Positions 50,785 to 64,000 of a DNA stretch of 64,000 nucleotides are shown here, piece by piece. The position numbers and the translations under genes were made by a program. The notes beneath the pieces were generated by a model, which searched no databases, had not been told where the DNA came from, and saw only the letters and a program-made list of their open reading frames with translations. Origin of the DNA: Candidatus Latescibacterota bacterium (GTDB lineage: Bacteria > Latescibacterota > UBA2968); NCBI GenBank assembly GCA_965116885.1, contig OZ220741.1:4736001-4800000 (forward strand). The letters are read 5' to 3'. The number at the start of each line of letters is the position of its first letter. Position 1 is the stretch's first letter.

Positions 50785-51510
50785 TTATTCTTCCTCATCA
50801 TCTCCGTATTCTTCACCGCGATAAGCCGCGCGCAACTCGGCGATATTGGTCGCCTTCTTAACGCGCGCCTGAAGCGCCTCTTCCCCTGCGATCAGTTCCT
50901 TCACATTCGCCAGTACCTCCGCCATCCGATCTGCGGGAAACTTAACCGCGCCATTTTCATCCATGTGAATAATCTCGCCAGGCGCGACATCCATGCCGCA
51001 AATCGACACCGGAATATTCACCGCCTGCACAGCCTGATCGCCATGCCCCGGCGATATACCCGTCAACAAATACTGAAACCCCATCGGACGGATTTCATCG
51101 ATATCTCTCGACGGCCCATTAGACACACAGCCCACGCACCCCAGTGCTTTCATCGTCGTCGTCATATTGCCGCCCGCAAGCCCTACCTTACCAGCAATCT
51201 CTGGCGGAAACTTCTGCTCCAGCGCCAGTACCGTCGGCTTTGGCGACGCATCCAGCGCCTCGGCCACATCCATAAACGACAACCGGCTAAATCCCGCATC
51301 TGGCAACGCAAAAGTACACGTCACAGCATACCCACACCGCGCACCGAGTTCTGGATACATACACTTAATCGTCTGATCCGTGTACCAATTTTCAAGCCAC
51401 GGATTATAAAGCCCCAAACACAACGGATTATTCGGATACGTCGCCACCACATTTGTAATAGACGGCGTATCGAAATTCTCCAGCTCCTTCAAAATCTCCT
51501 GCTCTGTCAT
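50785..51510 (-). CDS. RraA/HMG-aldolase family protein
   Basis: DTPSITN, GYAVT, GGNM, SNGPSRDIDE, VAPGEIIHMDENG. Confidence 0.85.
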   Translation of the reverse strand: MTEQEILKELENFDTPSITNVVATYPNNPLCLGLYNPWLENWYTDQTIKCMYPELGARCGYAVTCTFALPDAGFSRLSFMDVAEALDASPKPTVLALEQKFPPEIAGKVGLAGGNMTTTMKALGCVGCVSNGPSRDIDEIRPMGFQYLLTGISPGHGDQAVQAVNIPVSICGMDVAPGEIIHMDENGAVKFPADRMAEVLANVKELIAGEEALQARVKKATNIAELRAAYRGEEYGDDEEE

Positions 51511-51549
51511 GGTAATCTCCTTAAAAGGCGGTCAGCCCGCCCAGTTCAT

Positions 51550-51576
51550 CGGGCGACCACAGGGGGTCGCCCCTAC
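51550..51576. repeat. GTAG-type REP-like palindrome, variant copy
   Basis: CGGGCGACCACAGGGGGTCGCCCCTAC; stem GGGCGACC/GGTCGCCC. Confidence 0.7.
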
Positions 51577-51598
51577 TGACCAATTCACTTCACACTTC

Positions 51599-52567
51599 TC
51601 ACTTCTTCCCCACCTTCACCACATGTCCCTGATCCCAATCCTGAATCAGCGGCTCCAGATCATCCCAAAACGCCTCGGGAATTTCAATACTACCAGCTTC
51701 GGCATTTTGAATCGTCTCCGCTTTGTTTCGCCCCCCGCAAATCGCCGTTGCAATCAACGGATGCCGTGTACACCACTGCAGCGATGCCGCCACCAGTGGA
51801 ATGCCATAATCGTCGCAAAGCGCTTTTACCTTCCCAACACGGTCTAAAACCGCCTGACTAAAATTGCGATTCACATAAGAATGCCCGGGCAAGGGTCCCG
51901 TCGCCAGCAAACCGCGCTCCAGAGGTGTAGCAAGCGCAATCCCCACATTGTGTTTTTCAGCACCGGGAAAAATGAAGGTATCCGCCGTGCGGTTCAACAA
52001 ACTCCACGCATCGGGAACCACCGAAGCATCAAACTCGCCCGTATCAATATAGGGACCATTGGAATCGGGATCATTCGCCGCAATGCCAACAAAACGCACC
52101 ACACCCTCATCCTGCAATTTGCGCAACGCCCCAAGCGCGCCATCTTTTGCCATCACCTGCTGCATCGGAAAATCCATCGGGTCGTGAATATACAACACGT
52201 CAAACGCATCCAACCCCAACCGCTCCTGGCTGTCTTCCACCTGCTGCATCACCCCGTCGAGAGAGAAATCGTATTCATTTCCCGATCTCCCCACTTTTGT
52301 CGTCACCGTACACTTGTCAGCCAGATCGGGGCGTTCGCGCAACGCGCGACCAATAATTTTCTCGCTCACAGTATTCCCGTAAAGCGGCGCTGTATCGACC
52401 AGCGTACACCCGGCCTCAATAGCAGCCACCACATTCTCTACACCCACATCTTCATCAACTCCCGGCAAAAAATGACCATCTGGCCCCATCACACGAGCGA
52501 GAAACGCCGTGCCAAAACTGACGATTGGAACCTCCAACCCCGTTCTGCCCAATATCTTACTCTGCAT
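51599..52567 (-). CDS. Aldo/keto reductase
   Basis: LGRTGLEV, VDTAPLYG, SEKIIG, TTKVG, SQERLG, LYIHDP. Confidence 0.93.
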   Translation of the reverse strand: MQSKILGRTGLEVPIVSFGTAFLARVMGPDGHFLPGVDEDVGVENVVAAIEAGCTLVDTAPLYGNTVSEKIIGRALRERPDLADKCTVTTKVGRSGNEYDFSLDGVMQQVEDSQERLGLDAFDVLYIHDPMDFPMQQVMAKDGALGALRKLQDEGVVRFVGIAANDPDSNGPYIDTGEFDASVVPDAWSLLNRTADTFIFPGAEKHNVGIALATPLERGLLATGPLPGHSYVNRNFSQAVLDRVGKVKALCDDYGIPLVAASLQWCTRHPLIATAICGGRNKAETIQNAEAGSIEIPEAFWDDLEPLIQDWDQGHVVKVGKK

Positions 52568-52665
52568 CGCAAATCTCCTCCTAAAAAAACCCCTCGCATA
52601 ATAGACGACAGAACCCCGCGTGTCAATGCGAAAAAATCCCCTGCTCTATGTCATGGTTATGAGTA

Positions 52666-52990
52666 ATGTTACACAGCTTTAAACAAATTTGCGTTGCTTG
52701 TCGAAAGTGTTGGTGATAATTCCACCTTTTTCTCTTTGTTCTGCCTTCGGCGACCTACTTTTTGTCACCAGCAACAAAAAGTAGGCAAAAAATGCCGCTC
52801 TCAAACGCCGAGGGGCTGGCACAGCGCAAACTGCTCAGGTAGATAGACGCCATGTGATGACCTTCAAAGTGGAATGCAAACAATAAGGATGGTGGTTAAC
52901 GGAATAGCGCGCTGTGCAGAATGGTTTTGATTGATGGCGTTTTATGAGGGTGCATTTTTGTAATGGCTTATTTAAAGTACTGTGTAACAT
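52666..52990. mobile_element. Non-coding MITE-like foldback element, 325 bp
   Basis: Terminal inverted repeats ATGTTACACAG(--)CTTTAAA / TTTAAAGTACTGTGTAACAT plus nested internal inverted repeats. Confidence 0.6.
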
Positions 52991-53178
52991 CAGGAAAATA
53001 ATATTGACAGGCTATTAGCAATCTGTTGTATTTGCAAGTATTATGACAAATGAGATACGTGTCGCTGATCTCAATTTATCCTCTGACTACGCAGACGGGG
53101 CTTAACGGCGCGTGCGGGTACGATTGTTTGGACATGATAGGTTCCCTATATGCTCAATATTTTCAGGTTGGTTGAATA

Positions 53179-54171
53179 ATGGGTATAAGCGTAAAAGATC
53201 GCAAGATTCTATGGACGAGAGCGGGAAATCAATGCGCGTTCCCGGGATGTAGGCAGGAGCTTGTCGAGAAGACCCAAGATGTCGGTCCTGACATCGTTGT
53301 CGGTGAGGAAGCACATATAGTGTCGCGAAGCCGTAAAGGTCCACGGGGTTGCGAACCGATTCCCCAAGAAGGAATGGATTCATACACCAACATCATTCTT
53401 TTATGTCCCACGCATCACAATATTGTCGATAGTGCGCCCGACATTTATACCAAGCAATATATGATCGACATTAAATCTGCACACGAACACAGAGTAAGAT
53501 TCAATCAGCCTTTGGATGGATACTTGCTTGAAGTGGCTGCTACGGTACCCAATGCAATCGGAAAAGCTGTTAATTGCTGGCAGATCGGTGGCTCAATCGT
53601 AGTTATCTACTCGTATGGATCTTCGCCTATCCGGCTGGATAACGATCACTGGCGTGCTGCTGGTGTCAGAATTGGTCAATTGCATGCCACAGAAGATGTC
53701 CACTGGCTATTCGATAGTTCCGAAGCAGAGCCTGATATCGAGTACTGGCCTTCGGACTCCAAGTTTTATGTTGTTCAAGAGACATTTTTATACGACGAAA
53801 ATCGTTTTGCACCCTTCGTAAAGCATGAATTTGATCTCGCTAAGGTGCCTGCTTTATCACAAGTGGAGTTGTTGCTGGATGCAGACCCCTCCCTTGTTGT
53901 AAAAATTCCGGATATCGTCAAAGAGATAGGGGCAATTGATCGCGGCGACCATAGTGACCGTCTTGACGTTCTTCTTTTTCAGATGTGGAGAGCGGGCCTC
54001 AGTGACCCCATCCGGGTCTGCGAAGAGTTTCAACGATTTAAAGGAGCGTGGTGGTACAGCGGTGCAAATTCGGAAGGGGTCACTTCGAGGTCAAAGGAGT
54101 TAGCTCTTGTTCAAAGGGCACGAGCCTCTCTAAATAGTGCCGACTATCCGCGGGCGCGTCATCAATCTTGA
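53179..54171 (+). CDS. HNH endonuclease domain fused to an unknown C-terminal domain
   Basis: LWTRAGNQCAFPGC...GEEAHI...GPR...NIILLCPTHHNIVD. Confidence 0.85.
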   Translation: MGISVKDRKILWTRAGNQCAFPGCRQELVEKTQDVGPDIVVGEEAHIVSRSRKGPRGCEPIPQEGMDSYTNIILLCPTHHNIVDSAPDIYTKQYMIDIKSAHEHRVRFNQPLDGYLLEVAATVPNAIGKAVNCWQIGGSIVVIYSYGSSPIRLDNDHWRAAGVRIGQLHATEDVHWLFDSSEAEPDIEYWPSDSKFYVVQETFLYDENRFAPFVKHEFDLAKVPALSQVELLLDADPSLVVKIPDIVKEIGAIDRGDHSDRLDVLLFQMWRAGLSDPIRVCEEFQRFKGAWWYSGANSEGVTSRSKELALVQRARASLNSADYPRARHQS

Positions 54172-54283
54172 TCTTTTGGAAGTAACACACCTCCTTCAAT
54201 GTACCTGAATCAGACTATGATGGAAACAACTACCCGCCCATTTTTCGCCCTCTACATCATGACATGCGGAAGGAAAATTCACT

Positions 54284-56011
54284 GTGAATATTGATTCCAT
54301 ACACTTCAAGGGACATAGTTGTTTCAAAAAAGAGTGGGCTGGCTTCGACACAATCAAGCCCATCAACGTCATTATAGGACGTAATAACTCTGGAAAATCG
54401 CACCTCTTGGATTTAGTGGAAGCATTATGCGACGGCACCATCAACGGCCAAGGTTGGCAATATCGGTGCAGTAGCGTATTAGACGAGGAGTCATTAAGAA
54501 GTAAGTTTCCCGAAAACACGAGCGGAGGCGCACTGGGAGGAAATCACTGGCAGGCACACGGACAACATTTTGTCGATAAGCCGATAACCTGGAAGGTTGA
54601 TACAAGTGGAAGCATAGTCTTTTCCGATGATTTCAAATTAGACTCTCCTCGGGGTGAAAACTCAACCAATGTCCGGCGCTCATTAATTAGCCAAATCCTG
54701 CAAAACGTAACTCACCAATTTAACGGGCATTCATTCCGCAGACTTCTCGCAGATAGAGACATAAAAACCGAGCCGCAAGATGTTAATCTAACACTTGGAC
54801 CGGATGGAAATGGTGCTTCCAACATAATTCGGCGTTTCATCCTGACCACCAACGTGGAATTTCCGAGAGAAATTATACAGCGAGAACTTCGGGGTGCCCT
54901 GAATTCCATTTTTGGAAATGATGGTCAGTTTTCAGAAATACAGGTACAACATCATGACGATGGAACATCAGGTGGGCTACAAGATCATTGGGAGGTCTAT
55001 CTCGGTGAAGATAAAAAGGGTCTAATTCCCTTAAGCAAATCGGGAAGCGGACTGAAAACCATTCTTCTGGTGCTGCTGAACTTATTGGTCATACCCAAGG
55101 CCAAGATATCGGAGAACAGAAACAAATCTGGATTTGTATTCGCTTTCGAAGAACTTGAAAATAATCTCCATCCAGCACTCCTGCGGCGGCTTTTTCAGTA
55201 TATTGAAAAATACGCCATCACTGAAAAGGTATATATTTTTTTGACAACTCATTCGAGCACGGCATTGGATTTCTTTGGTGTCTCGAAAAATGCTCAAATA
55301 ATCCATGTTTTACATGATGGAGAATCGGCACGTACGATACCAGTTTCCGCACACTTCGATCACCTCGGAGTGGTATCCGAATTAGGTGCGAAACCATCGG
55401 ATTTACTCCAGGCAAATGGCATAGTTTGGGTGGAAGGGCCATCTGATCGCATTTATCTCAATCGCTGGGTTGGCCTCTATTCGGAAGGTCGTTTTCAGGA
55501 GGGTCGGGATTATCAGTGTGCTTTCTACGGTGGATCGCTTTTGGCACGGATACAATTCAAATCTCCCGAGGAAGCCGAAACCGATCTTGTTAATCTACTC
55601 AGCGTTAATCCAAATATCATCGTTGTGTGTGATGGGGATCGAACTGCCAAAGATTCTGATATAAAGGGAAGGGTGAAGAGGATTAACACGGAGGTACAAA
55701 AAATACCTGATGCTCATATTTGGATAACCGATGCGAAGGAAATTGAAAATTATATTCCAAGCTCTGTCCTCGAGAAGGCATTAGACCTTTCAGGACTTCG
55801 TGATCCTGAACAGTATGAGAACTTTTTTCCTCGTAAAAAAGCCTGTTCCGAGTCATATATCGAAGCCAATCTGAATCGGCGCAATGTCCATAAGGAAGAT
55901 TTAGCCAGATCAAGCGTTCCGCACATGACGAACGACATAATGGCGAATCGCTTTGATTGGAAAGAACAGATGAAAGAAATTGTTACCCGTATAGAATCCT
56001 GGAATACTTGA
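54284..56011 (+). CDS. OLD-family ATP-dependent nuclease (ABC ATPase plus TOPRIM)
   Basis: GRNNSGKS Walker A, SGSG signature, FEELENNLHP Walker B/D-loop, TTHS; TOPRIM WVEGPSD, DGD, EIENY. Confidence 0.9.
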   Translation: MNIDSIHFKGHSCFKKEWAGFDTIKPINVIIGRNNSGKSHLLDLVEALCDGTINGQGWQYRCSSVLDEESLRSKFPENTSGGALGGNHWQAHGQHFVDKPITWKVDTSGSIVFSDDFKLDSPRGENSTNVRRSLISQILQNVTHQFNGHSFRRLLADRDIKTEPQDVNLTLGPDGNGASNIIRRFILTTNVEFPREIIQRELRGALNSIFGNDGQFSEIQVQHHDDGTSGGLQDHWEVYLGEDKKGLIPLSKSGSGLKTILLVLLNLLVIPKAKISENRNKSGFVFAFEELENNLHPALLRRLFQYIEKYAITEKVYIFLTTHSSTALDFFGVSKNAQIIHVLHDGESARTIPVSAHFDHLGVVSELGAKPSDLLQANGIVWVEGPSDRIYLNRWVGLYSEGRFQEGRDYQCAFYGGSLLARIQFKSPEEAETDLVNLLSVNPNIIVVCDGDRTAKDSDIKGRVKRINTEVQKIPDAHIWITDAKEIENYIPSSVLEKALDLSGLRDPEQYENFFPRKKACSESYIEANLNRRNVHKEDLARSSVPHMTNDIMANRFDWKEQMKEIVTRIESWNT

Positions 56012-56073
56012 AGGGCATGAACCTTGTCAATGCCACATGTGTTAGATTGTGAACCTGAAATGGAGATCTCATT

Positions 56074-56535
56074 GTAAGTCAAAAATTTAATTTTGAGAAT
56101 CTCGTTGAGTTGTGTCGGCGAACCCACGATCAAACGCAACGCTCAGCAACGCAAGCTATTGATCGCGCACTTGTCGCACGTAATTGGCTATTCGGCTGGT
56201 ATATCGTCGAGTATGAGCAGAACGGCGCAGACAGGGCAGAATACGGATCGCAGACCCTGAAAAGGCTTTCAGCAGCCCTGAAAACCAAGATTGGCTGTGG
56301 GTTCTCTGTGGATGCCCTGGAACGGATGCGCCGGTTCTACCTGCTTTACAAACACATCATTCCCGATGCTCTCGAGGCGGAAAAATTCGCAACAGTGTCG
56401 CGGATTTCCGACAGTGGAAAGATTTCCGCGACAGCGTCGCGGATTTTGCCCAAACAGTCTCTGAAGCGCGAAGATATCGCAGTTGTCATTCTACCGGAAA
56501 CCAGACAACGATTTTCCTTCGGATAGTCCCACACA
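56074..56535 (+). pseudogene. DUF1016/YhcG N-terminal fragment
   Basis: RNWLFGWYIVEYEQNGADRAEYG, GFS...LERMRRFY; G-stop-S-H (TAG) where the family has WSH; no canonical start after the RBS and no C-terminal nuclease domain. Confidence 0.8.
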
Positions 56536-56749
56536 GTTAGCCATATCAGTGTATTAGCATGTCAGAAGTCGTTGAGAAGTAAGTTTCTCGAAAACATAAG
56601 AGACGGTGTCGGTAGGAAACCACTGATTTGACCGCGAACAACATTTTGTCGATATTTCTATAACCTGGGAGGTTGCAGCAAATGGGGACATATCTACCGA
56701 GGTATTCCCCGACAATCTCAAAATGTACGGATGTAGAGGGGGAGCCGAC

Positions 56750-57829
56750 ATGGCACAGCCACAACATCGCAGCAAAGACAACTTGCAACAGAGCGAATAC
56801 TGGATGCGTACCGTCTCGTTTGCAGGACTCCATCGCATTTTGAAAGCCGTTGCAGACTTTCCGACCGGACTCAAGGCTAGTGAGATTAACAACCTGGTGC
56901 TGAAAAATAAAATCTCACTTACTCGGCGTAATTCTCCCCCTTCACCTACTACCCTTTACCACTATCGGAATACCTTGTTACACCTACGCGCACTCAAACG
57001 AGATGGACGGATGTTGCGTATCAACTACGATGACCCTGACGTCTGCAAACTACTACATCAACCAGCCCCAGCCAACGGAGATCAATCGCTATGTGATGCT
57101 GCGAAAGACCCATTTGCAGCACTGGTTTTGAAAAACGAACAATGCAGATCGCTTTTCTTCGATCTTTTCATGCCTTTGGATATAAGTTCTGGTACCGTCT
57201 CCAACTTCCGGCAAAAGGGTGTCCCCGTTAAGTGGACCCGCCACCATTCCTCTCACGCTGGAGAGGTCGTTTTTGAAAATAATACGACAGGCTACACGGC
57301 ACGTTGTGTATCACCTGTAAGCGTGACTGCAATTCTATATGGCTTACGCTACTGGGCGCGTGATGAATTAGGACTCATTGACGAATACTGCCAACAAGCT
57401 GGTGGTGATACGATCATGTTTCCCTTATCCCACCCAGAGCCTTTCTCAACAGAAATTGATTCTCCTGTACTGCGGACAGTGCACTTACTACTTTCTCTAC
57501 GTACCTCACGAGAATGGACTCTTTTTTCCATTTCCGATCTCATCGCTCGTTGCTGTGTAGAACAAAGGCAACCGATTAGTGTGCTCTTCCGTGCCATTGA
57601 TTGGATACTCAAAAAATGGCCTAATCATATTTTGCTGATCCCAACATCTCGTGCCCTCGCTACGCTGACAGCGACATCGCCACAACGGGAGAATCTGGAG
57701 TTGCGAAGATATTACAGGACTTCAAATGGCCCCTATATCTCCCATATCCGCATACATCAAGAAATAACGATCAAATCCCAAGAGGTGACAAACAAACATG
57801 TCCAATATTCTGGAAAAACTCCGGCTTGA
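56750..57829 (+). CDS. Hypothetical protein, probable winged-helix DNA-binding domains
   Basis: ATG 56750 after GGAG; LHRILKAV...GLKASEI...SPTTLYHYRNTLLHL looks wHTH-like; overlaps the next gene. Confidence 0.65.
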   Translation: MAQPQHRSKDNLQQSEYWMRTVSFAGLHRILKAVADFPTGLKASEINNLVLKNKISLTRRNSPPSPTTLYHYRNTLLHLRALKRDGRMLRINYDDPDVCKLLHQPAPANGDQSLCDAAKDPFAALVLKNEQCRSLFFDLFMPLDISSGTVSNFRQKGVPVKWTRHHSSHAGEVVFENNTTGYTARCVSPVSVTAILYGLRYWARDELGLIDEYCQQAGGDTIMFPLSHPEPFSTEIDSPVLRTVHLLLSLRTSREWTLFSISDLIARCCVEQRQPISVLFRAIDWILKKWPNHILLIPTSRALATLTATSPQRENLELRRYYRTSNGPYISHIRIHQEITIKSQEVTNKHVQYSGKTPA

Positions 57830-58988
57830 CTTTAATCCCTTTGAGCCAGCGGCAACAGGTGCGCCCCTCCATGCCAAATTGTCGCCCCCAAAAGACTTGG
57901 AATCTCGAATGAAAAAACTTCTCGACTTACATCAAAAAGGAACTGGTGTCAAGGCCATAGTCATCGTTGGAGAGTACGGGACAGGAAAGACCTGTCTCTT
58001 GCAATGGCTCCATAACGAGGTTTTTCCAAGCCGTCAAATCAAATCGTTTTACTTCGACAATCCAGGGGTGCAATTCTACGACCTTGCCAATATGTTGTTA
58101 CGTACTATCGGACGTAAGGACTTTGCAAAATTTATCTGGGAGCTTGCCGGTTCGCATGTGCCTGGTTCGCATCAAACAAGCCTTTTTGAAAAAGGTTATG
58201 AGGCGTATTTGTCCAGTTCGTTCCGCCCAGGCCGACAACAGGATATGACAAGTCCCCTCCAAGAAGCGATTATAAATGCGGATGTCACGACCGACGAACA
58301 GATCGCGCACTGTCTCGCCCGGATCGTTACCGAAATTGTAAAAAAACCATATTTTGAATATCGGGACTTCATACCGAGGCAGAGTGGCAGCATGGTTCCA
58401 GAAGGAGAAGAAGCACGATACTTTCGTGCAATATTGAAAACGATCTCACAGGGAATGGGTGCCAAGGCCATAGCATTTCTGATCGACGAATTTGAGGAAA
58501 TAGGTCTTCAAAAAAGGCTCACCAGACGTGCTGCACATGATTACTTAGCGACGCTGAAACGTTTGATAAACCTCGCTCAAAGCGAACAAGTTGACTTCTG
58601 GATTGTCATGTCAATGACTCCCGAGGCCTTCGATACCACTATTAACCTCGATCCTGCGCTCGGTGAGCGTTTCTCTGGGCCATCCGAGCAAGAGCAGGTA
58701 CTTCGTATCGAACCGTTGGGTCCCAACGACGCTCTTAATTTGATGCAATCACGTATAAATGCTGCTCGTGCTAAAGAAATGGGCGAATCAACGGAAGATC
58801 TTTTTCCATTTCCAGATGATATTGTCTTCCGTCCCAACACGTACTCTAATCCCAGACGGCTCGTAAAGACCTGTTTTCGAGCAATTGCACAGGCAGATGC
58901 AGACCCACCATTTACTGAAGAATATCTTCACAAAATTGAAGATGAACTTTATCCCGACCCAACTACCAGCGAGAATGTGCAACCATGA
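57798..58988 (+). CDS. P-loop ATPase (ORC/Cdc6- or BrxD/DUF2791-like)
   Basis: FNPF start, GEYGTGKT Walker A, FLIDEFE Walker B, ALGERF, SNPRRL. Confidence 0.85.
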   Translation: MSNILEKLRLDFNPFEPAATGAPLHAKLSPPKDLESRMKKLLDLHQKGTGVKAIVIVGEYGTGKTCLLQWLHNEVFPSRQIKSFYFDNPGVQFYDLANMLLRTIGRKDFAKFIWELAGSHVPGSHQTSLFEKGYEAYLSSSFRPGRQQDMTSPLQEAIINADVTTDEQIAHCLARIVTEIVKKPYFEYRDFIPRQSGSMVPEGEEARYFRAILKTISQGMGAKAIAFLIDEFEEIGLQKRLTRRAAHDYLATLKRLINLAQSEQVDFWIVMSMTPEAFDTTINLDPALGERFSGPSEQEQVLRIEPLGPNDALNLMQSRINAARAKEMGESTEDLFPFPDDIVFRPNTYSNPRRLVKTCFRAIAQADADPPFTEEYLHKIEDELYPDPTTSENVQP

Positions 58989-59740
58989 AAGAGGAGCAAA
59001 CCTTCCAGACAGTAGTGTTTCTGGACACAATGACACTACACCATATTCGGCTTTGCTTGGAGTCCGCCAAGAAGGATGATCTTCAATTTCCTACTGACGA
59101 GCAAACGGTATCCATATTGAAAACCCATTTTGGCAGCGTTTCCGAAGGACCTCTAAAGGAATCACTTCTAAAAGGCTTGGAGACTATCGTTTTACTATCA
59201 ACAAATGATGTACAGATCGAATATGCGCCCGTCTCAGAAATTGAGATACTCACTGGAATTACAGAGGGAGAAGCACGTATAAAAGTGGCCCAAGAGGGCA
59301 TTCCTCATCGAATGTGGTCAAAGTTTCCGGAAAGAGAGATTCGAGATCGGATAATCGCCGAGGACTTAGCTGCTATCAAGGATCGTATTGACGATCTTGA
59401 CTCATTGTTAGAGGAGTCTGGCGTTACGGTTACGCGAAGTGACAACAAACGAACAAGTGATGTAATTGAATTGGCGAAAGGCATAGTTGGTCTCATCTAC
59501 ATGGGCGAAATAGATAGTATCATTTACGCAAGCGCAGTGGCTGCCGGAGCGGACTTTTTGATCACATCTGATAGCTACCTCAGAGAAACTGTGAATAATA
59601 TTCGCGATTCAAAGGATCAACGATACGAGGAAATTCGACGAAAGTTGAATGAGCTTATCGGCGATTTCGACCTTCCCAAAGCTTTCACAGTTACGGATTC
59701 AGGTAGACTTAGAGGAATATCATCTTCATCTTTCCCTTGA
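58985..59740 (+). CDS. PIN-domain protein (extended)
   Basis: VFLDT, SEIE, IDSIIYASAVAAGADFLITSD; ATGA overlap with the ATPase. Confidence 0.8.
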   Translation: MKEEQTFQTVVFLDTMTLHHIRLCLESAKKDDLQFPTDEQTVSILKTHFGSVSEGPLKESLLKGLETIVLLSTNDVQIEYAPVSEIEILTGITEGEARIKVAQEGIPHRMWSKFPEREIRDRIIAEDLAAIKDRIDDLDSLLEESGVTVTRSDNKRTSDVIELAKGIVGLIYMGEIDSIIYASAVAAGADFLITSDSYLRETVNNIRDSKDQRYEEIRRKLNELIGDFDLPKAFTVTDSGRLRGISSSSFP

Positions 59741-59754
59741 GATAGATTCTGGTT

Positions 59755-60966
59755 ATGAAATATCAAACCACCGAGCAGGCAGAGTGGAGATATTGGGTGA
59801 CCCCAAAAGATGCCAAAGAGAAGGCAGTCCACCGTTGGTATCTATTTCCCCATAGCTTCACCGATAATCTCGTACACGCGCTGATTGATGAATGGGGCCT
59901 TAACGGCCAAGATAGGATCCTTGATCCCTTCGTGGGGACAGGTACAACGCTATTGGCCGCCAAGGAAATGGGCGTTCCTGGCAATGGCTATGACCTTTCC
60001 CCTCTCGCCGTTCTTGCATCTAATACCAAGACCGCTACTTTCTCCCGAAAGCGGTTGGAAGCAGCATGGCAAACTCTCGAACGCACATTGATATGCAGCA
60101 ATACACCCCTGAACCGCGTCTATCCGGAACTGGTTCAAAAGGCACTCCCAGAGGGCCGGCTTGAAGCTCTTAATGCAGTCGCGACAAGTATTGAGAGTCT
60201 CGAATGTTCGTCCACGGAACGGGATTTCTTCCGATTGGCGTTGCTTTCTATCATACCACGTTTCAGCCATGCGGTCGCAACTGGAGGTTGGCTGAGGTGG
60301 TTGAATCAAGGTGCTAGTGCCGAGAACGTTACGGTTTTTTTTAAAGAACAAGTTGAGATGATGTTGTCGGATATCTGTGACGCAGTCCCCCAAAGAGATG
60401 GATATTGGGAAACCCATGTCGCGGATGCGCGTGTCATGCCTGCAAACGATGCGGAATACTCAGCCGTGATTACTTCACCACCGTACCCAAATCGTCACGA
60501 CTACACGCGAATTTTTGGGGTCGAATTGATGTTTGCCTTTCTTGACTGGGAAGCCAATCGAGCACTTAGATACCAGACGTTTCATTCCCATCCAGAAGCT
60601 CGTCCGGATCGACCAGTAGCTAAAAGGTATAAACCCCCGAAGGCTTTGAACGGCAGTATCCGAGATCTACGAGACAAGCGTATGCAACGCATGCTGGAGG
60701 GATATTTCCTGGACATGTATTTATGTCTTTGCGAAGTTGCTCGTGTTTGTCGCAAAGGTGCTAAAGCAGCGTTCGTCGTAGGGAATGCACAATATGACGG
60801 TAAGGCTATCCTTGTTGATGAGTTCACGGCAGAGGTCGGGGAACAAGCGGGGCTCACCTGTGAGGAAATACGGGTAGTGCGGAGACGTGGAAATAGTGCA
60901 CAACAGATGGGGAAATATGGGCGAGTGGCGTCTCGAGAGAGTGTTGTCATATTTGAGAAGCCCTGA
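59755..60966 (+). CDS. DNA methyltransferase, alpha-class, probably N4-cytosine
   Basis: VHRWY, motif I ILDPFVGTGTT before motif IV VITSPPY; VVGN. Confidence 0.9.
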   Translation: MKYQTTEQAEWRYWVTPKDAKEKAVHRWYLFPHSFTDNLVHALIDEWGLNGQDRILDPFVGTGTTLLAAKEMGVPGNGYDLSPLAVLASNTKTATFSRKRLEAAWQTLERTLICSNTPLNRVYPELVQKALPEGRLEALNAVATSIESLECSSTERDFFRLALLSIIPRFSHAVATGGWLRWLNQGASAENVTVFFKEQVEMMLSDICDAVPQRDGYWETHVADARVMPANDAEYSAVITSPPYPNRHDYTRIFGVELMFAFLDWEANRALRYQTFHSHPEARPDRPVAKRYKPPKALNGSIRDLRDKRMQRMLEGYFLDMYLCLCEVARVCRKGAKAAFVVGNAQYDGKAILVDEFTAEVGEQAGLTCEEIRVVRRRGNSAQQMGKYGRVASRESVVIFEKP

Positions 60967-61008
60967 TAGTCAAATTAGAGTGACCAGTTGCGCCTCTGGA
61001 GGTAAGAG

Positions 61009-61251
61009 GTGTTCAAAGAACATGAACAAATCGTGCTCACTGCCGATGTAGTCGGCGATGAAGGAGAAGAACTGAAATCGGGTGATGCGGGCACCATCAT
61101 CCACATCCACCCAAATGAAGAAGCTCTTGTAGCGGAGTTCATGTCCCTTGATGGCGACACAGTGGCCATCGCGACAGTGTTACCGTCACAGGCACGCCCC
61201 GTGACTAACGCGGACCTCACACATGCCAGAACGGTTCCGGCTACTGTCTGA
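61009..61251 (+). CDS. DUF4926-like small protein
   Basis: FKEHEQIVL...LKSGDAGTIIHI...AEFMSLDGDTVAI; GTG after GGAGG. Confidence 0.75.
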   Translation: MFKEHEQIVLTADVVGDEGEELKSGDAGTIIHIHPNEEALVAEFMSLDGDTVAIATVLPSQARPVTNADLTHARTVPATV

Positions 61252-61268
61252 CCCTTGCATCGATTTCG

Positions 61269-61426
61269 GGGGCGTAATGGGGCGCAATAGAGGCACTATA
61301 GGGGCGCATTGGAAACGCCTGTGAGACTTCGGTTGGCTTATTCTGGCTTATTCTGGCTTATTCTGGCTTATTAGGGTCTCATTGGGGTCTTATTGGGGTC
61401 TTATTGGGGTCTTATTGGGGTCTTAT
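61269..61426. repeat. Compound 10/11-bp tandem repeats
   Basis: TGGCTTATTC about 4x (61334-61372); GGGGTCTTATT about 4x plus one variant (61373-61426); degenerate GGGGCG-AAT units before them. Confidence 0.85.
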
Positions 61427-61647
61427 CCGTTTCTCCACGGGCCGTACAGTCCCCGGCAAACGATATGTGATCAATGATGGATAGCTTGACTCAGGAGCTA
61501 TGACAAGCTGTGACGAACCATCACAGAATCGCGGAAAAAATGACCCCCCCGACTACTCCGTATAGGAGAGTGCTCGCCTGGAGCACTTGTCATCAGGGGG
61601 GAACCTTTTTATCCATTGGGCAGAATAAAACCTGAAGCAACAAATCT

Positions 61648-62394
61648 CTAAACCGCCATCGCCTCTTCTTTCAAATCATTCAACCCTTCAAACTCGCGCC
61701 AGATATCGGCCATAGCATCCGTGCTATTTTCTCTGGCATTGACGTGTCGGGGTCTGAAAATCACGGCATACCGGATATCGGGTGAATGATTTGGGCCTCC
61801 ATTGTGATACATCTGGTGATGGCAGATCACTGCATCGCCTGCCTCGCCCATAAACTGAATCGGACCATGCGGCAAATCGATATTGGGAATCCGGCGATTG
61901 GCCTTTGCCGTCTCCACATAATTGGGATCCTTTTGAAACGCCGCCTCATAAGCGCGATGAGACCCCGGCCAAAAACAGAAATTGCCCATATATGGTCGCG
62001 GAACATCGTGGACCAGAACCACCACCAGCAGCGTCATACCGCGACTCAGCAACCCATCTTTCAGCTTCCCGCCCAAATCCAGATGCCCTCGCGTCAGCGG
62101 ACGCTCCTCTGCATCGGGAAAATTGAGCTTCACATTACCTCCCTGCGGTGGAATCAACTTCCCCTCTCCCACAACTGACTCGCACAGACCCCAAAGCGGC
62201 GACTTATTAAATAAATCTGCAATCACCGGCTCATTGCTCAACCCCGGATTTCGTCCCTGTTGCATCACACGATAACGCATGTGATAATTAATAGCCCTGC
62301 GTGCCTGATCGGCCATCAACTTTGGCACAGCCCCTCGCACAAGCACATATCCCTCTTCGAAAAACTGCTGCTTTTGAGCTTTGGTCATTTGCAT
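61648..62394 (-). CDS. PhyH-family dioxygenase
   Basis: QFFEEGYV, GHLD, WPGSH, AGDAVICH, MYHNG, IRY. Confidence 0.88.
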   Translation of the reverse strand: MQMTKAQKQQFFEEGYVLVRGAVPKLMADQARRAINYHMRYRVMQQGRNPGLSNEPVIADLFNKSPLWGLCESVVGEGKLIPPQGGNVKLNFPDAEERPLTRGHLDLGGKLKDGLLSRGMTLLVVVLVHDVPRPYMGNFCFWPGSHRAYEAAFQKDPNYVETAKANRRIPNIDLPHGPIQFMGEAGDAVICHHQMYHNGGPNHSPDIRYAVIFRPRHVNARENSTDAMADIWREFEGLNDLKEEAMAV

Positions 62395-62403
62395 GGCAAC
62401 CTC

Positions 62404-63375
62404 CTATTCATAATCCAGCACAACCTTAATCGCCTCGTCGCGATGATCGATAAACAACTCAAACCCCTTTTGCACCTCTGTAAACGGCAAATGGTGTGTG
62501 ATAATCGGCGAGACATCGATACGTCCCTGTGCGATCATATCCATAGCCAGGGGATAATCATTCAGCGAATCTGGCCCCACAGAGCCGACCAGCGTCACAT
62601 TCTTACTGAAAAAAGCGCGATAATTAAACGCATACACATCGTCATCGGGCACGCCAAACGCCAGCACCGTGCCCAGGCGTTTGGTCAAATTCAGACACAA
62701 ATTGACCGTATCCTGATTGTGCCCCACAATCTCCACCACCAGATCGGCCATGCGTCCATCCGTAATATCTCTCACAACAGCCACCACATCTTCCCTATCG
62801 GGATTCACCACATGGGTCGCCCGCATCTTTTTGGCCGCCTCGACACGAAAATCGACCGTATCCACAGCCACAACGGTCTTCGCCCCCAAATTGCTCAACA
62901 AATGCGTCATCAACAAACCCATTGGCCCCTGCCCCACCACCACGGCGTCCTGATTGAGAATATTGCCCAACTTGCGACACGCCCAAATCACCGTCCCCAA
63001 AGGCTGTGACATCAACAATTCATCAAGCGGTTTATAATCCACGAGATGAACCCCTACTCTTTCACTCGAAATATAATATTCAGCCAACCCACCGATACCC
63101 GCCGTGGGCCGCGCCTGCACAAAATCCCCCGGTTGAAACCGATCCGACGACGACGCAACCACCGTACCAATACACTCGTGAATCGAAGTCCCGATATTCA
63201 TCGGATACACCGCGTCCGGTTGTTTCAATACAAACTTTGGCGAATCCGACCCACAAATCGCGGTCATATGCGCCTTAACCTTTATCGATCCCCCTGGAAA
63301 ATCCTCAATATTCGGCTCATCGGCCTCAAACATCTCAATCTGCCGATGAGCGACAACGTGTGCTGCTTTCACCAA
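62404..63375 (-). CDS. Zinc-binding (MDR) alcohol dehydrogenase
   Basis: ICGSD, IHECIG, VVGQGPMG, ITHHLP, AIKVV. Confidence 0.9.
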   Translation of the reverse strand: MVKAAHVVAHRQIEMFEADEPNIEDFPGGSIKVKAHMTAICGSDSPKFVLKQPDAVYPMNIGTSIHECIGTVVASSSDRFQPGDFVQARPTAGIGGLAEYYISSERVGVHLVDYKPLDELLMSQPLGTVIWACRKLGNILNQDAVVVGQGPMGLLMTHLLSNLGAKTVVAVDTVDFRVEAAKKMRATHVVNPDREDVVAVVRDITDGRMADLVVEIVGHNQDTVNLCLNLTKRLGTVLAFGVPDDDVYAFNYRAFFSKNVTLVGSVGPDSLNDYPLAMDMIAQGRIDVSPIITHHLPFTEVQKGFELFIDHRDEAIKVVLDYE

Positions 63376-63402
63376 TGCCTCCTTTAGAAACTTTTAGATC
63401 AG

Positions 63403-63430
63403 CGGGCGGGCACAGGGGCACCGCCCCTAC
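63403..63430. repeat. GTAG-type REP-like palindrome, copy 2
   Basis: Identical 28-mer to 1245-1272. Confidence 0.75.
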
Positions 63431-63457
63431 ATTGATTGCTATCGCCTATCCATCCCC

Positions 63458-64000
63458 TCAATCCGCCGCTTCAATCCGCGGAGCCTCTAACTCACTGCGC
63501 TTTCCCAACCAGATGAACACACCGCCAACGCCCAGTACAAAACCGCCCACAAACAGAATCCCCAGACGTCCAATCAGTGGATTGGGCAAAAAGACGAGCA
63601 TACAAATCACCCCGCCAATAACCGCAGCAAAACTACCGATAATTTTGAGCTGGCGCAAATCATTTGGTATGCCGATCTCTTTCTCAAAATCAACCGGAGT
63701 CAGCATGCGATCAAAAAAGTCCTGCGCTTGCCTCTTATAAACTTCCGGCGTGCGATTCCAGAACGGCATCGTCAACAAATAAACCACTATCCCCACGGCG
63801 AGATTGGTAAACACCTTCTGCTGAAATGACCAGGTCTCGCCAAAAAGCTCCGCGCTAAAAAAACCAATTGCCGATGGAATCAGCGTCACACACACCGTCA
63901 CAATCGCCGCCCAACTCGGCGACGTGCGAATAAACAATCCCATCAAAGCAGGCACAGCCATCGGCAACGCCAACAACGCGCCGATATTCAACATATGCTC
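63458..64000 (-). CDS. Sodium:solute symporter-like membrane protein, 3' part only
   Basis: Hydrophobic helices, PMAVPALMGLF, FFDRMLTPVDF; 5' end lies outside the window. Confidence 0.6.
   Translation of the reverse strand, partial: EHMLNIGALLALPMAVPALMGLFIRTSPSWAAIVTVCVTLIPSAIGFFSAELFGETWSFQQKVFTNLAVGIVVYLLTMPFWNRTPEVYKRQAQDFFDRMLTPVDFEKEIGIPNDLRQLKIIGSFAAVIGGVICMLVFLPNPLIGRLGILFVGGFVLGVGGVFIWLGKRSELEAPRIEAAD

Follow-up and report, generated by a model that had tools for sequence, protein, structure and literature searches.

Ssp, BREX, Dnd and MANTIS are large systems, all of which rely on a winged-helix DNA reader, an Orc/Cdc6-type ATPase or both. SspB-SspC have been described as combining an Orc/Cdc6 ATPase with a triple winged helix (PMC10853773; PMC12707154), and DndG, SspB and FokI as having the triple winged helix-turn-helix (wHTH) module (PMC10853773). 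Here we analyse a four-gene cassette from a Candidatus Latescibacterota bacterium, located on a 64,000-nucleotide stretch of contig OZ220741.1 (hereafter the window). A first-pass annotation had read it as an undescribed anti-phage system composed of a wHTH-like protein, a P-loop ATPase, a PIN nuclease and an N4-cytosine (m4C) DNA methyltransferase. By analogy with the systems above, we propose with slightly better than even confidence that the cassette is a compact Ssp/BREX-like, methylation-gated immune system in which unmethylated sites would trigger the PIN nuclease. That it serves defence of some kind, whether in this way, as a guard or with a methylase-loading machinery, appears highly probable.

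A conserved four-gene unit

All four genes lie on the + strand and are as tightly coupled as annotated: gene 1 (56750..57829, 359 residues) overlaps gene 2 (57798..58988, 396 residues) by 32 bp, gene 2 shares an ATGA overlap with gene 3 (58985..59740, 251 residues), and a 14-bp gap precedes gene 4 (59755..60966, 403 residues). The open reading frame (ORF) list begins gene 1 at 56723; the database protein P0001 has 359 residues and thus starts at 56750, upstream of which lies a G/A-rich site resembling a ribosome-binding site. Together with a leader of about 135 bp the genes form a mobile unit (56615..60979, + strand) that is a single unbroken 4.4-kb match to two relatives of the host genus, L004 and L003, with 91% and 86% nucleotide identity, respectively. 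The borders of the unit are fixed by these two loci, since both carry exactly this segment at the same chromosomal site. The host genome contains one copy. The scan for promoters and terminators returned counts at chance level (9 vs 6.9 ± 2.3 and 6 vs 4.9 ± 2.0). A lower-GC island had been annotated, and the dip exists but is mild: with a cassette GC content of 0.473 against a genome mean of 0.511 (standard deviation 0.03), the island is only mildly AT-rich, and 10% of same-sized genome segments have values as low as the cassette.

The four genes are one conserved, co-inherited unit with a patchy spread. A gene-1 profile retrieved 60 loci from species-representative genomes and 29 from metagenomes, and a gene was called intact when one stop-free profile match covered at least 85% of it. 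Four genome loci were too short to judge; among the 56 assessable ones, 39 have all four genes intact, 16 contain one or more broken or missing genes, and the remaining one, L050, is limited to genes 1-3. The intact genes are contiguous and in the window order in 37 of the 39 loci, the exceptions being L041, with a 3.6-kb insertion, and L057, with an inversion. Of the metagenome loci, several of which are duplicates, 14 have all four genes, one is cut by the contig end, one is decayed and 13 are too short. The first-pass annotation had suggested looking for the gene order in unrelated genomes, and it recurs there: intact copies from uncultured bacteria span ten phylum-level groups, as assigned from record titles, the nearest relatives being Candidatus Latescibacterota, and order and tight spacing are retained down to 28-45% identity. 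This recurrence refutes a chance cluster of unrelated island genes, which we regard as extremely improbable even though the site gathers varied cargo. L078:3537-8091 and L079 show another arrangement, in which the methylase comes first and gene 1 follows a 95-residue ORF.

Pairwise identities of the four proteins correlate (Spearman 0.88-0.95), which indicates joint inheritance only, because kin share such a correlation. Since the loci had been picked via gene 1, all 168 genomes of the host phylum were also searched with the other genes. The PIN gene and the methylase orthologue (E < 1e-200) occur in the same six genomes, always adjacent, and five further genomes have a distant methylase only (E ~1e-41). 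The ATPase was found in those six and in three related remnants (G072, G075 and G089), which were not counted as independent losses because a left breakpoint is common to G072 and G089, and the same fragment of gene 1 is present in G075. An intact methylase stands beside a broken trio of genes 1-3 in four loci (L019, L031, L038 and L071), and the decay in 16 of 56 loci is as expected for costly defence genes. On a quick ATPase tree the distribution of phyla takes 14 changes, where 9 would be the minimum; according to the tool this is no proof of transfer. Viral contigs contained no relative of gene 1 and plasmids none of the ATPase, with methylase matches in plasmids at only 26-27%. Among 400 sampled genomes of the phylum of G168, gene 1 was present in none but G168 itself.

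Predicted functions of the encoded proteins

The annotated motifs, namely Walker A/B plus NPR, the PIN acidic residues and FxGxG before SPPY, are all present and are conserved throughout 47 aligned complete cassettes (the window and 46 non-redundant loci), the set to which invariance refers below.

Gene 1 is predicted to be a triple winged-helix DNA-recognition protein of the FokI/SspB/BrxA type, which agrees with the wHTH-like protein annotated earlier. Its homologues (399 at the 90% level, 196 at the 50% level) belong to no known family, no two of 93 homologues share a Pfam family, and searches of Pfam, PADLOC, NCBIfam and PDB sequences gave no match; the Atlas returned unnamed clusters only, together with a sub-0.9 lead to DpdG. 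The structural model (predicted local distance difference test, pLDDT, 83.7) aligns with the recognition part of FokI (residues 7-273 only; Z 9.4, root-mean-square deviation (rmsd) 3.1, 166 aligned), SspB (Z 8.1, rmsd 4.2, 166 aligned), N.BspD6I (Z 7.5, rmsd 3.7), BrxA (Z 7.3, rmsd 3.8, 150 aligned; no sequence match) and BpuJI (Z 6.8, rmsd 4.1-4.2), and the top Foldseek row is SspB (6juf, E 0.016, prob 0.80). These five recognition-domain alignments span 150-174 residues, and the last third of the protein aligns with single winged helices. Each Z score alone is middling, and the case for the fold lies in the agreement of five related proteins. Y70, H71 and R73 in helix 66-78 (YHxR) are invariant. 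A standard type II restriction endonuclease (REase) fold for this protein had been named as an outcome that would count against a new system. The FokI alignment is confined to the recognition part, and no PD-(D/E)xK catalytic domain is among the fold matches listed, though the protein may still have an unlisted fold. SspB is reported to nick (PMC12707154).

Gene 2, annotated as a P-loop ATPase, is by its model an AAA+ ATPase of the Orc/Cdc6-TnsC-BrxC type. The model (pLDDT 78) has no C-terminal winged helix and aligns with Cdc6/ORC2 (Z 16.4, rmsd 3.7-4.0, ~260 aligned), TnsC (Z 14.6) and BrxC (Z 12.6); the catalytic positions K64, D230, E231, T274, R291 and R353 (GEYGTGKT, LIDEFEE, NPRR) are invariant. 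At the sequence level, the Pfam BrxC_BrxD match spans residues 44-75 only, the BREX_BrxD model scores 19.7 bits against a cut-off of 350 and covers the P-loop only, and PADLOC SspC reaches 10.3 bits over 31 residues. In L034, L050 and P0294, gene 2 is fused in frame behind a gene 1 with 72%, 39% and 27% identity to that of the window, respectively. Reader-ATPase fusions at such different distances make it very likely that genes 1 and 2 act together.

Gene 3 is likely a PIN-domain nuclease with insertions. The annotated acidic residues (D14, E87, D177 and D196) are invariant in a protein that is the fastest-evolving of the four (mean identity 37.5%), and Atlas look-alike clusters carry PF01850 PIN in 58% and 84% of their members (scores 0.91 and 0.90). 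The earlier PIN call is supported by these residues and look-alikes and not by the Pfam PIN profile, whose match stays below the cut-off (15.7 vs 23.6 bits, E 0.024). Profiles of genes 2 and 3 gave no meaningful PDB sequence match, and a BsoBI row (E 0.037) in that search was treated as chance. Prediction of an ATPase-PIN complex returned a score of 0.38 (best control 0.00), with contact agreement of at least 73% and partner pLDDT of at least 81. This passes a mark reached by 116 of 157 solved pairs and 2 of 215 mismatched pairs; passing scores of 0.60 or less comprise 18 solved pairs only and both mismatches. The prediction lends weak support to an ATPase-PIN contact. Because the motif layout is VapC-like, we lean slightly towards host or phage RNA as the PIN target, with growth arrest as the outcome, over DNA near the recognised site.

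Gene 4 encodes an amino-methyltransferase that matches Pfam N6_N4_Mtase above the cut-off (35 bits) and PADLOC MTase_II PDLC03224 over residues 14-403 (E 2.7e-61). The 25 PADLOC rows listed for it are MTase_II and mad2, with PglX in none. F59-x-G61-x-G63 precedes S241PPY, and both are conserved in the whole set. Taking SPPY as the sign of N4-cytosine methylation, and with the automatic UniRef name as a second basis, we infer that gene 4 is likely an m4C methylase. Between the catalytic motifs, GGW[LF]RW is nearly invariant and is found in 119 of 120 distant matches; since both this motif and the YHxR helix of the reader are near-invariant, one fixed target site may be used across the whole family. 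The host genome also carries two tandem distant methylase homologues (G000:C1:3019244-3020842) with 21% and 28% identity to gene 4.

If the cassette is methylation-gated, the methylase would label the host's DNA at a short site. Where that site is unlabelled, in invading DNA, the predicted winged-helix reader would assemble together with the ATPase, which in its assembled state would activate the PIN nuclease. We infer these functional steps, including m4C marking, a site shared by reader and methylase, ATP-dependent activation and protection, from the logic of Ssp, BREX, MANTIS and LlaJI (PMC12707154; 10.64898/2026.09.23.753747).

Genomic setting and competing explanations

Gene 4 is a homologue of TT_C1880 (TTC1880) of Thermus thermophilus HB27 (38% identity over 403 residues, E 3e-85), and the methylase of L082 shares 75% identity with the representative of the TT_C1880-containing cluster. 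ICETh1 encodes TthHB27I-NurA-TdtA-TTC1880, of which the first three are required for DNA donation (PMC5365140, PMC7767461). In L076, L080, L082 and L083, NurA-like and HerA genes lie between the PIN and methylase genes, and in L070 they lie upstream; a type IIG enzyme is encoded ahead in L070, L076 and L080. The full order in L076 and L080 is IIG-gene1-gene2-PIN-NurA-HerA-methylase, with the same inner order in L082 and L083. The NurA-like genes match Pfam NurA below the cut-off (E 0.002-0.006), and the HerA genes match a solved HerA (E 1e-35). These relatives, by adding NurA-HerA, tie the cassette to the Thermus DNA-donation operon. They also invite the explanation that the cassette is not anti-phage at all, but either selfish, as an addiction cassette, or accessory to DNA donation and processing like the ICETh1 tdtA operon, to which L076 and L080 would correspond with the trio added. 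We consider this decidedly improbable: none of the 39 intact genome loci has NurA-HerA genes in its fetched flanks, transfer is affected only slightly when the ICETh1 methylase is lost (PMC7767461), and addiction and defence are not mutually exclusive.

The same methylase family bears on a further alternative, in which reader and ATPase would mainly form a marking machine, as SspBC do or as MtsAB do in loading MtsC in MANTIS, and the PIN protein would nick, process or cut downstream. MANTIS methylation requires that the methylase be loaded by an Orc/Cdc6-clade ATPase (10.64898/2026.09.23.753747), SspBC add the phosphorothioate mark and methylation depends on BrxA in three of the four cases tested (PMC12707154); genes 1 and 2 are predicted to have these two folds. 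However, close methylase homologues with the same GGW[LF]RW motif persist in operons without genes 1 and 2, which suggests that the methylase can act unaided, and a primarily marking role seems to us quite improbable. One operon without the trio, in genome G347 of the phylum of G168 (L119:718-9117), has the order IIG-NurA-HerA-methylase; we read a small ORF between its IIG and NurA genes as transposase-like.

The insertion site of the cassette is a defence hotspot. In the window, variable cargo occupies 52568..61647 between two anchor genes, which we read from their sequences as presumably aldo-keto-reductase-like and dioxygenase-like. Besides the cassette, the cargo consists of an HNH (HNH_2) gene (53179-54171), a gene for an OLD-like ABC ATPase (54284-56011), a truncated DUF1016 gene (DUF1016_N/YhcG; 56110-56526, 138 residues against 379 in the G082 counterpart, L116) and a DUF4926 gene (61009-61251). 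The first-pass annotation had identified the HNH, OLD and DUF1016 genes beside the operon correctly. We rejected them as members of the system: they are missing at the same site in L003 and L004, where only the unit is present, they are hotspot cargo, and their block matches cargo of G082. A degenerate OLD-like piece (56536-56740) lies just upstream of gene 1, overlapping the cassette leader, and L002 has a similar piece. Past the island, at 61334-61430, a 10-bp unit is repeated about four times, followed by an 11-bp unit repeated about four times (by eye), parts of which match the same site in relatives.

The anchor genes are close together on one contig in 16 of 21 host-genus genomes, with a gap that ranges from 0.9 to 15 kb and differs in cargo. 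It measures 0.9 kb in four genomes (one of them fetched, and empty) and 1.7 kb in one; elsewhere it holds an intact cassette (three genomes), type I restriction-modification (RM) genes with varied cargo (seven) or OLD with Cap4-NACHT (one). The last, in G080 (L112:3657-8081), includes a 1474-residue protein with a Cap4-type nuclease and NACHT/STAND domains adjoining OLD. A setting among defence genes is seen beyond the genus as well, given that 27 of 39 intact loci have defence-type neighbours (RM, MANTIS-like, OLD/ABC, STAND or DISARM-like) within flanks of ~8 kb upstream and 4.8 kb downstream. Twenty-five of these were found with a panel of annotated proteins and two more with PADLOC, which was run on 36 chosen neighbours; of 5000 places drawn at random from the host genome, island excluded, the panel hit 0.6%. 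In L005 (6305-6676) and five other loci, a small aspartyl-protease-like gene lies between hsdM and hsdS of the adjoining type I RM locus, and in L030:4945-14298 a MANTIS-like locus has a decayed cassette nested within it, flanked by its DUF1156 and DUF499 genes.

The hsdS and hsdR genes of a type I RM operon flank the cassette in 8 of the 39 intact loci, and other loci lie beside type IIG or MANTIS-like genes. Such positions would suit a guard, with genes 1-3 acting as a PrrC- or PARIS-like back-up module that watches an RM enzyme or the methylase; a phage inhibitor would cause the ATPase to release the PIN nuclease and arrest the cell, and the methylase would work alone. PrrC sits inside a type IC locus (PMC12707154), a back-up role as suicide effectors in BREX and Dnd systems has been suggested for PIN RNases (PMC12839542, PMC10853773), and both the methylase without the trio and the L050 trio without a methylase fit this explanation. 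We nevertheless judge it unlikely. Nesting in type I RM is not specific, because the hsdS-hsdR gap holds many unrelated cargo genes in the genus, and obligate nesting was rejected on the count of eight loci; the sites in the window, L003 and L004 have no hsd genes. The trio, moreover, tracks the methylase and not any RM type, and a dedicated triple-wHTH DNA reader suits site recognition better than the guarding of a protein.

Several observations weigh against methylation-gated immunity. The gene-1 Z scores (7-9) are near the level that the tool calls common for winged helices. The methylase is not an exclusive partner of the trio, since its family stands without genes 1-3 in T. thermophilus ICETh1 and in G347. 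At L050:7998-10961 the fused reader-ATPase and the PIN gene are intact but the locus lacks a methylase of the family; the genome concerned, G171, for which no completeness is given, contains only a weak methylase match (1.7e-22). Furthermore, 12 of the 39 intact loci have no recognised defence neighbour in the fetched flanks, and the defence enrichment is overstated and only indicative, because the panel was built from the same loci, these loci are related and a single genome served as background; some panel hits are self-hits. What the loci display is a methylase that can stand without the trio and a trio that almost always has the methylase, L050 being the exception.

Comparison with described systems

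No PADLOC 2.0 or NCBIfam system matches the cassette, and a full-text literature search found no description of the gene set, although supplements of PMC10853773 and PMC12839542 could still list it. The first-pass annotation likewise had not recognised this combination as a named system; of the outcomes it had set against itself, neither a catalogued match nor a lack of recurrence was observed.

SspABCD is similar in combining a reader of the SspB/FokI fold, predicted here, with a following Orc/Cdc6-type ATPase and a DNA-marking enzyme (PMC10853773, PMC12707154). It differs in the mark, which in the cassette would come from an S-adenosylmethionine-dependent methylase and in Ssp from a PAPS-reductase/sulphur pathway, with no SspD among the island proteins; in the ATPase, which has 396 residues in the cassette against the 1039 positions of the SspC profile (SspC has about 1000 residues); and in the PIN gene inside the operon, where SspE is absent. 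BREX and its related systems, among them MANTIS (Gao_RL) and the BRC capture system, likewise bring a BrxA-like reader, a BrxC/BrxD-like ATPase and a methylase together in one operon. The likeness to BrxA is in the predicted wHTH fold, and gene 2 does not qualify as BrxC/BrxD by sequence. As annotated, the operon has no PglZ or helicase, and BrxL, DUF499, DUF1156 and DUF3780 are also absent from the four proteins and the window neighbours; PglZ was found neither among the 8 island proteins nor among recurrent annotated neighbours of related loci. The cassette methylase is a 403-residue SPPY enzyme, unlike the large PglX/BrxXI or a PAPS reductase, and the cassette measures ~4.2 kb in all. The MANTIS/Gao_RL domain set, which we take to be a DUF499 ATPase, a DUF3780 co-regulator, a DUF1156 methylase and a helicase-nuclease, is absent from the four proteins, with DUF499, DUF1156 and SNF2 present only as separate neighbours in some relatives.

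Other systems share single elements. Gene 4 is a stand-alone DNA methylase (PADLOC MTase_II), as in type II RM. LlaJI-type RM also has a reader of unmodified sites, a McrB-like nucleoside triphosphatase, a separate nuclease and methylases that share labour (PMC12707154), but these enzymes are of other families than those of the cassette. Neighbourhoods of Orc/CDC6 and DndG-like triple-wHTH genes contain both folds plus a nuclease, sometimes with HerA/FtsK (PMC10853773); the nuclease there is a REase (iREase insert or ASCH fusion), and section 22 of that source gives no PIN or N4-methylase partner. The embedding of PrrC in type I RM has its counterpart in the eight nested relatives and not in the window, which has no hsd gene at the site. 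The ICETh1 tdtA operon shares the TTC1880-family methylase, and relatives with the trio plus NurA-HerA have matching sizes (374/568/411 vs 377/568/410 residues), the HerA being a candidate counterpart of TdtA. As described in PMC5365140, the operon has no reader, ATPase or PIN gene, and window positions 51501-63500 contain no match to a type IIG enzyme, NurA or HerA. More tentatively, and with the balance of our judgement against it, the cassette could define a minimal RM class without a classical REase or helicase, in which a free-standing FokI-like reader, together with an initiator-type AAA+ ATPase, detects unmethylated sites and sets off a PIN nuclease; the ICETh1 'DNA-donation' operon would then be a sister or reduced form and TTC1880 its self-mark.

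The literature search found no methylation motif for TTC1880. The link to this protein points to T. thermophilus HB27, which can be cultured and manipulated genetically, as a host for reading the methylated site, and it offers a role for the ICETh1 methylase. The cassette would show whether a PIN nuclease can be the restriction arm of a methylation system, and L050 offers a natural way to ask whether genes 1-3 depend on the methylase. As a four-protein version of 4.2 kb with natural reader-ATPase fusions, it would be the smallest test bed for the coupling of recognition to an effector. Judged by its gene content, the cassette appears to work like a reduced Ssp/BREX system, yet it falls outside BREX, Ssp and MANTIS on their defining genes. 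By analogy with these systems, it is likely a real, unnamed form of ATPase-assisted methylation defence.

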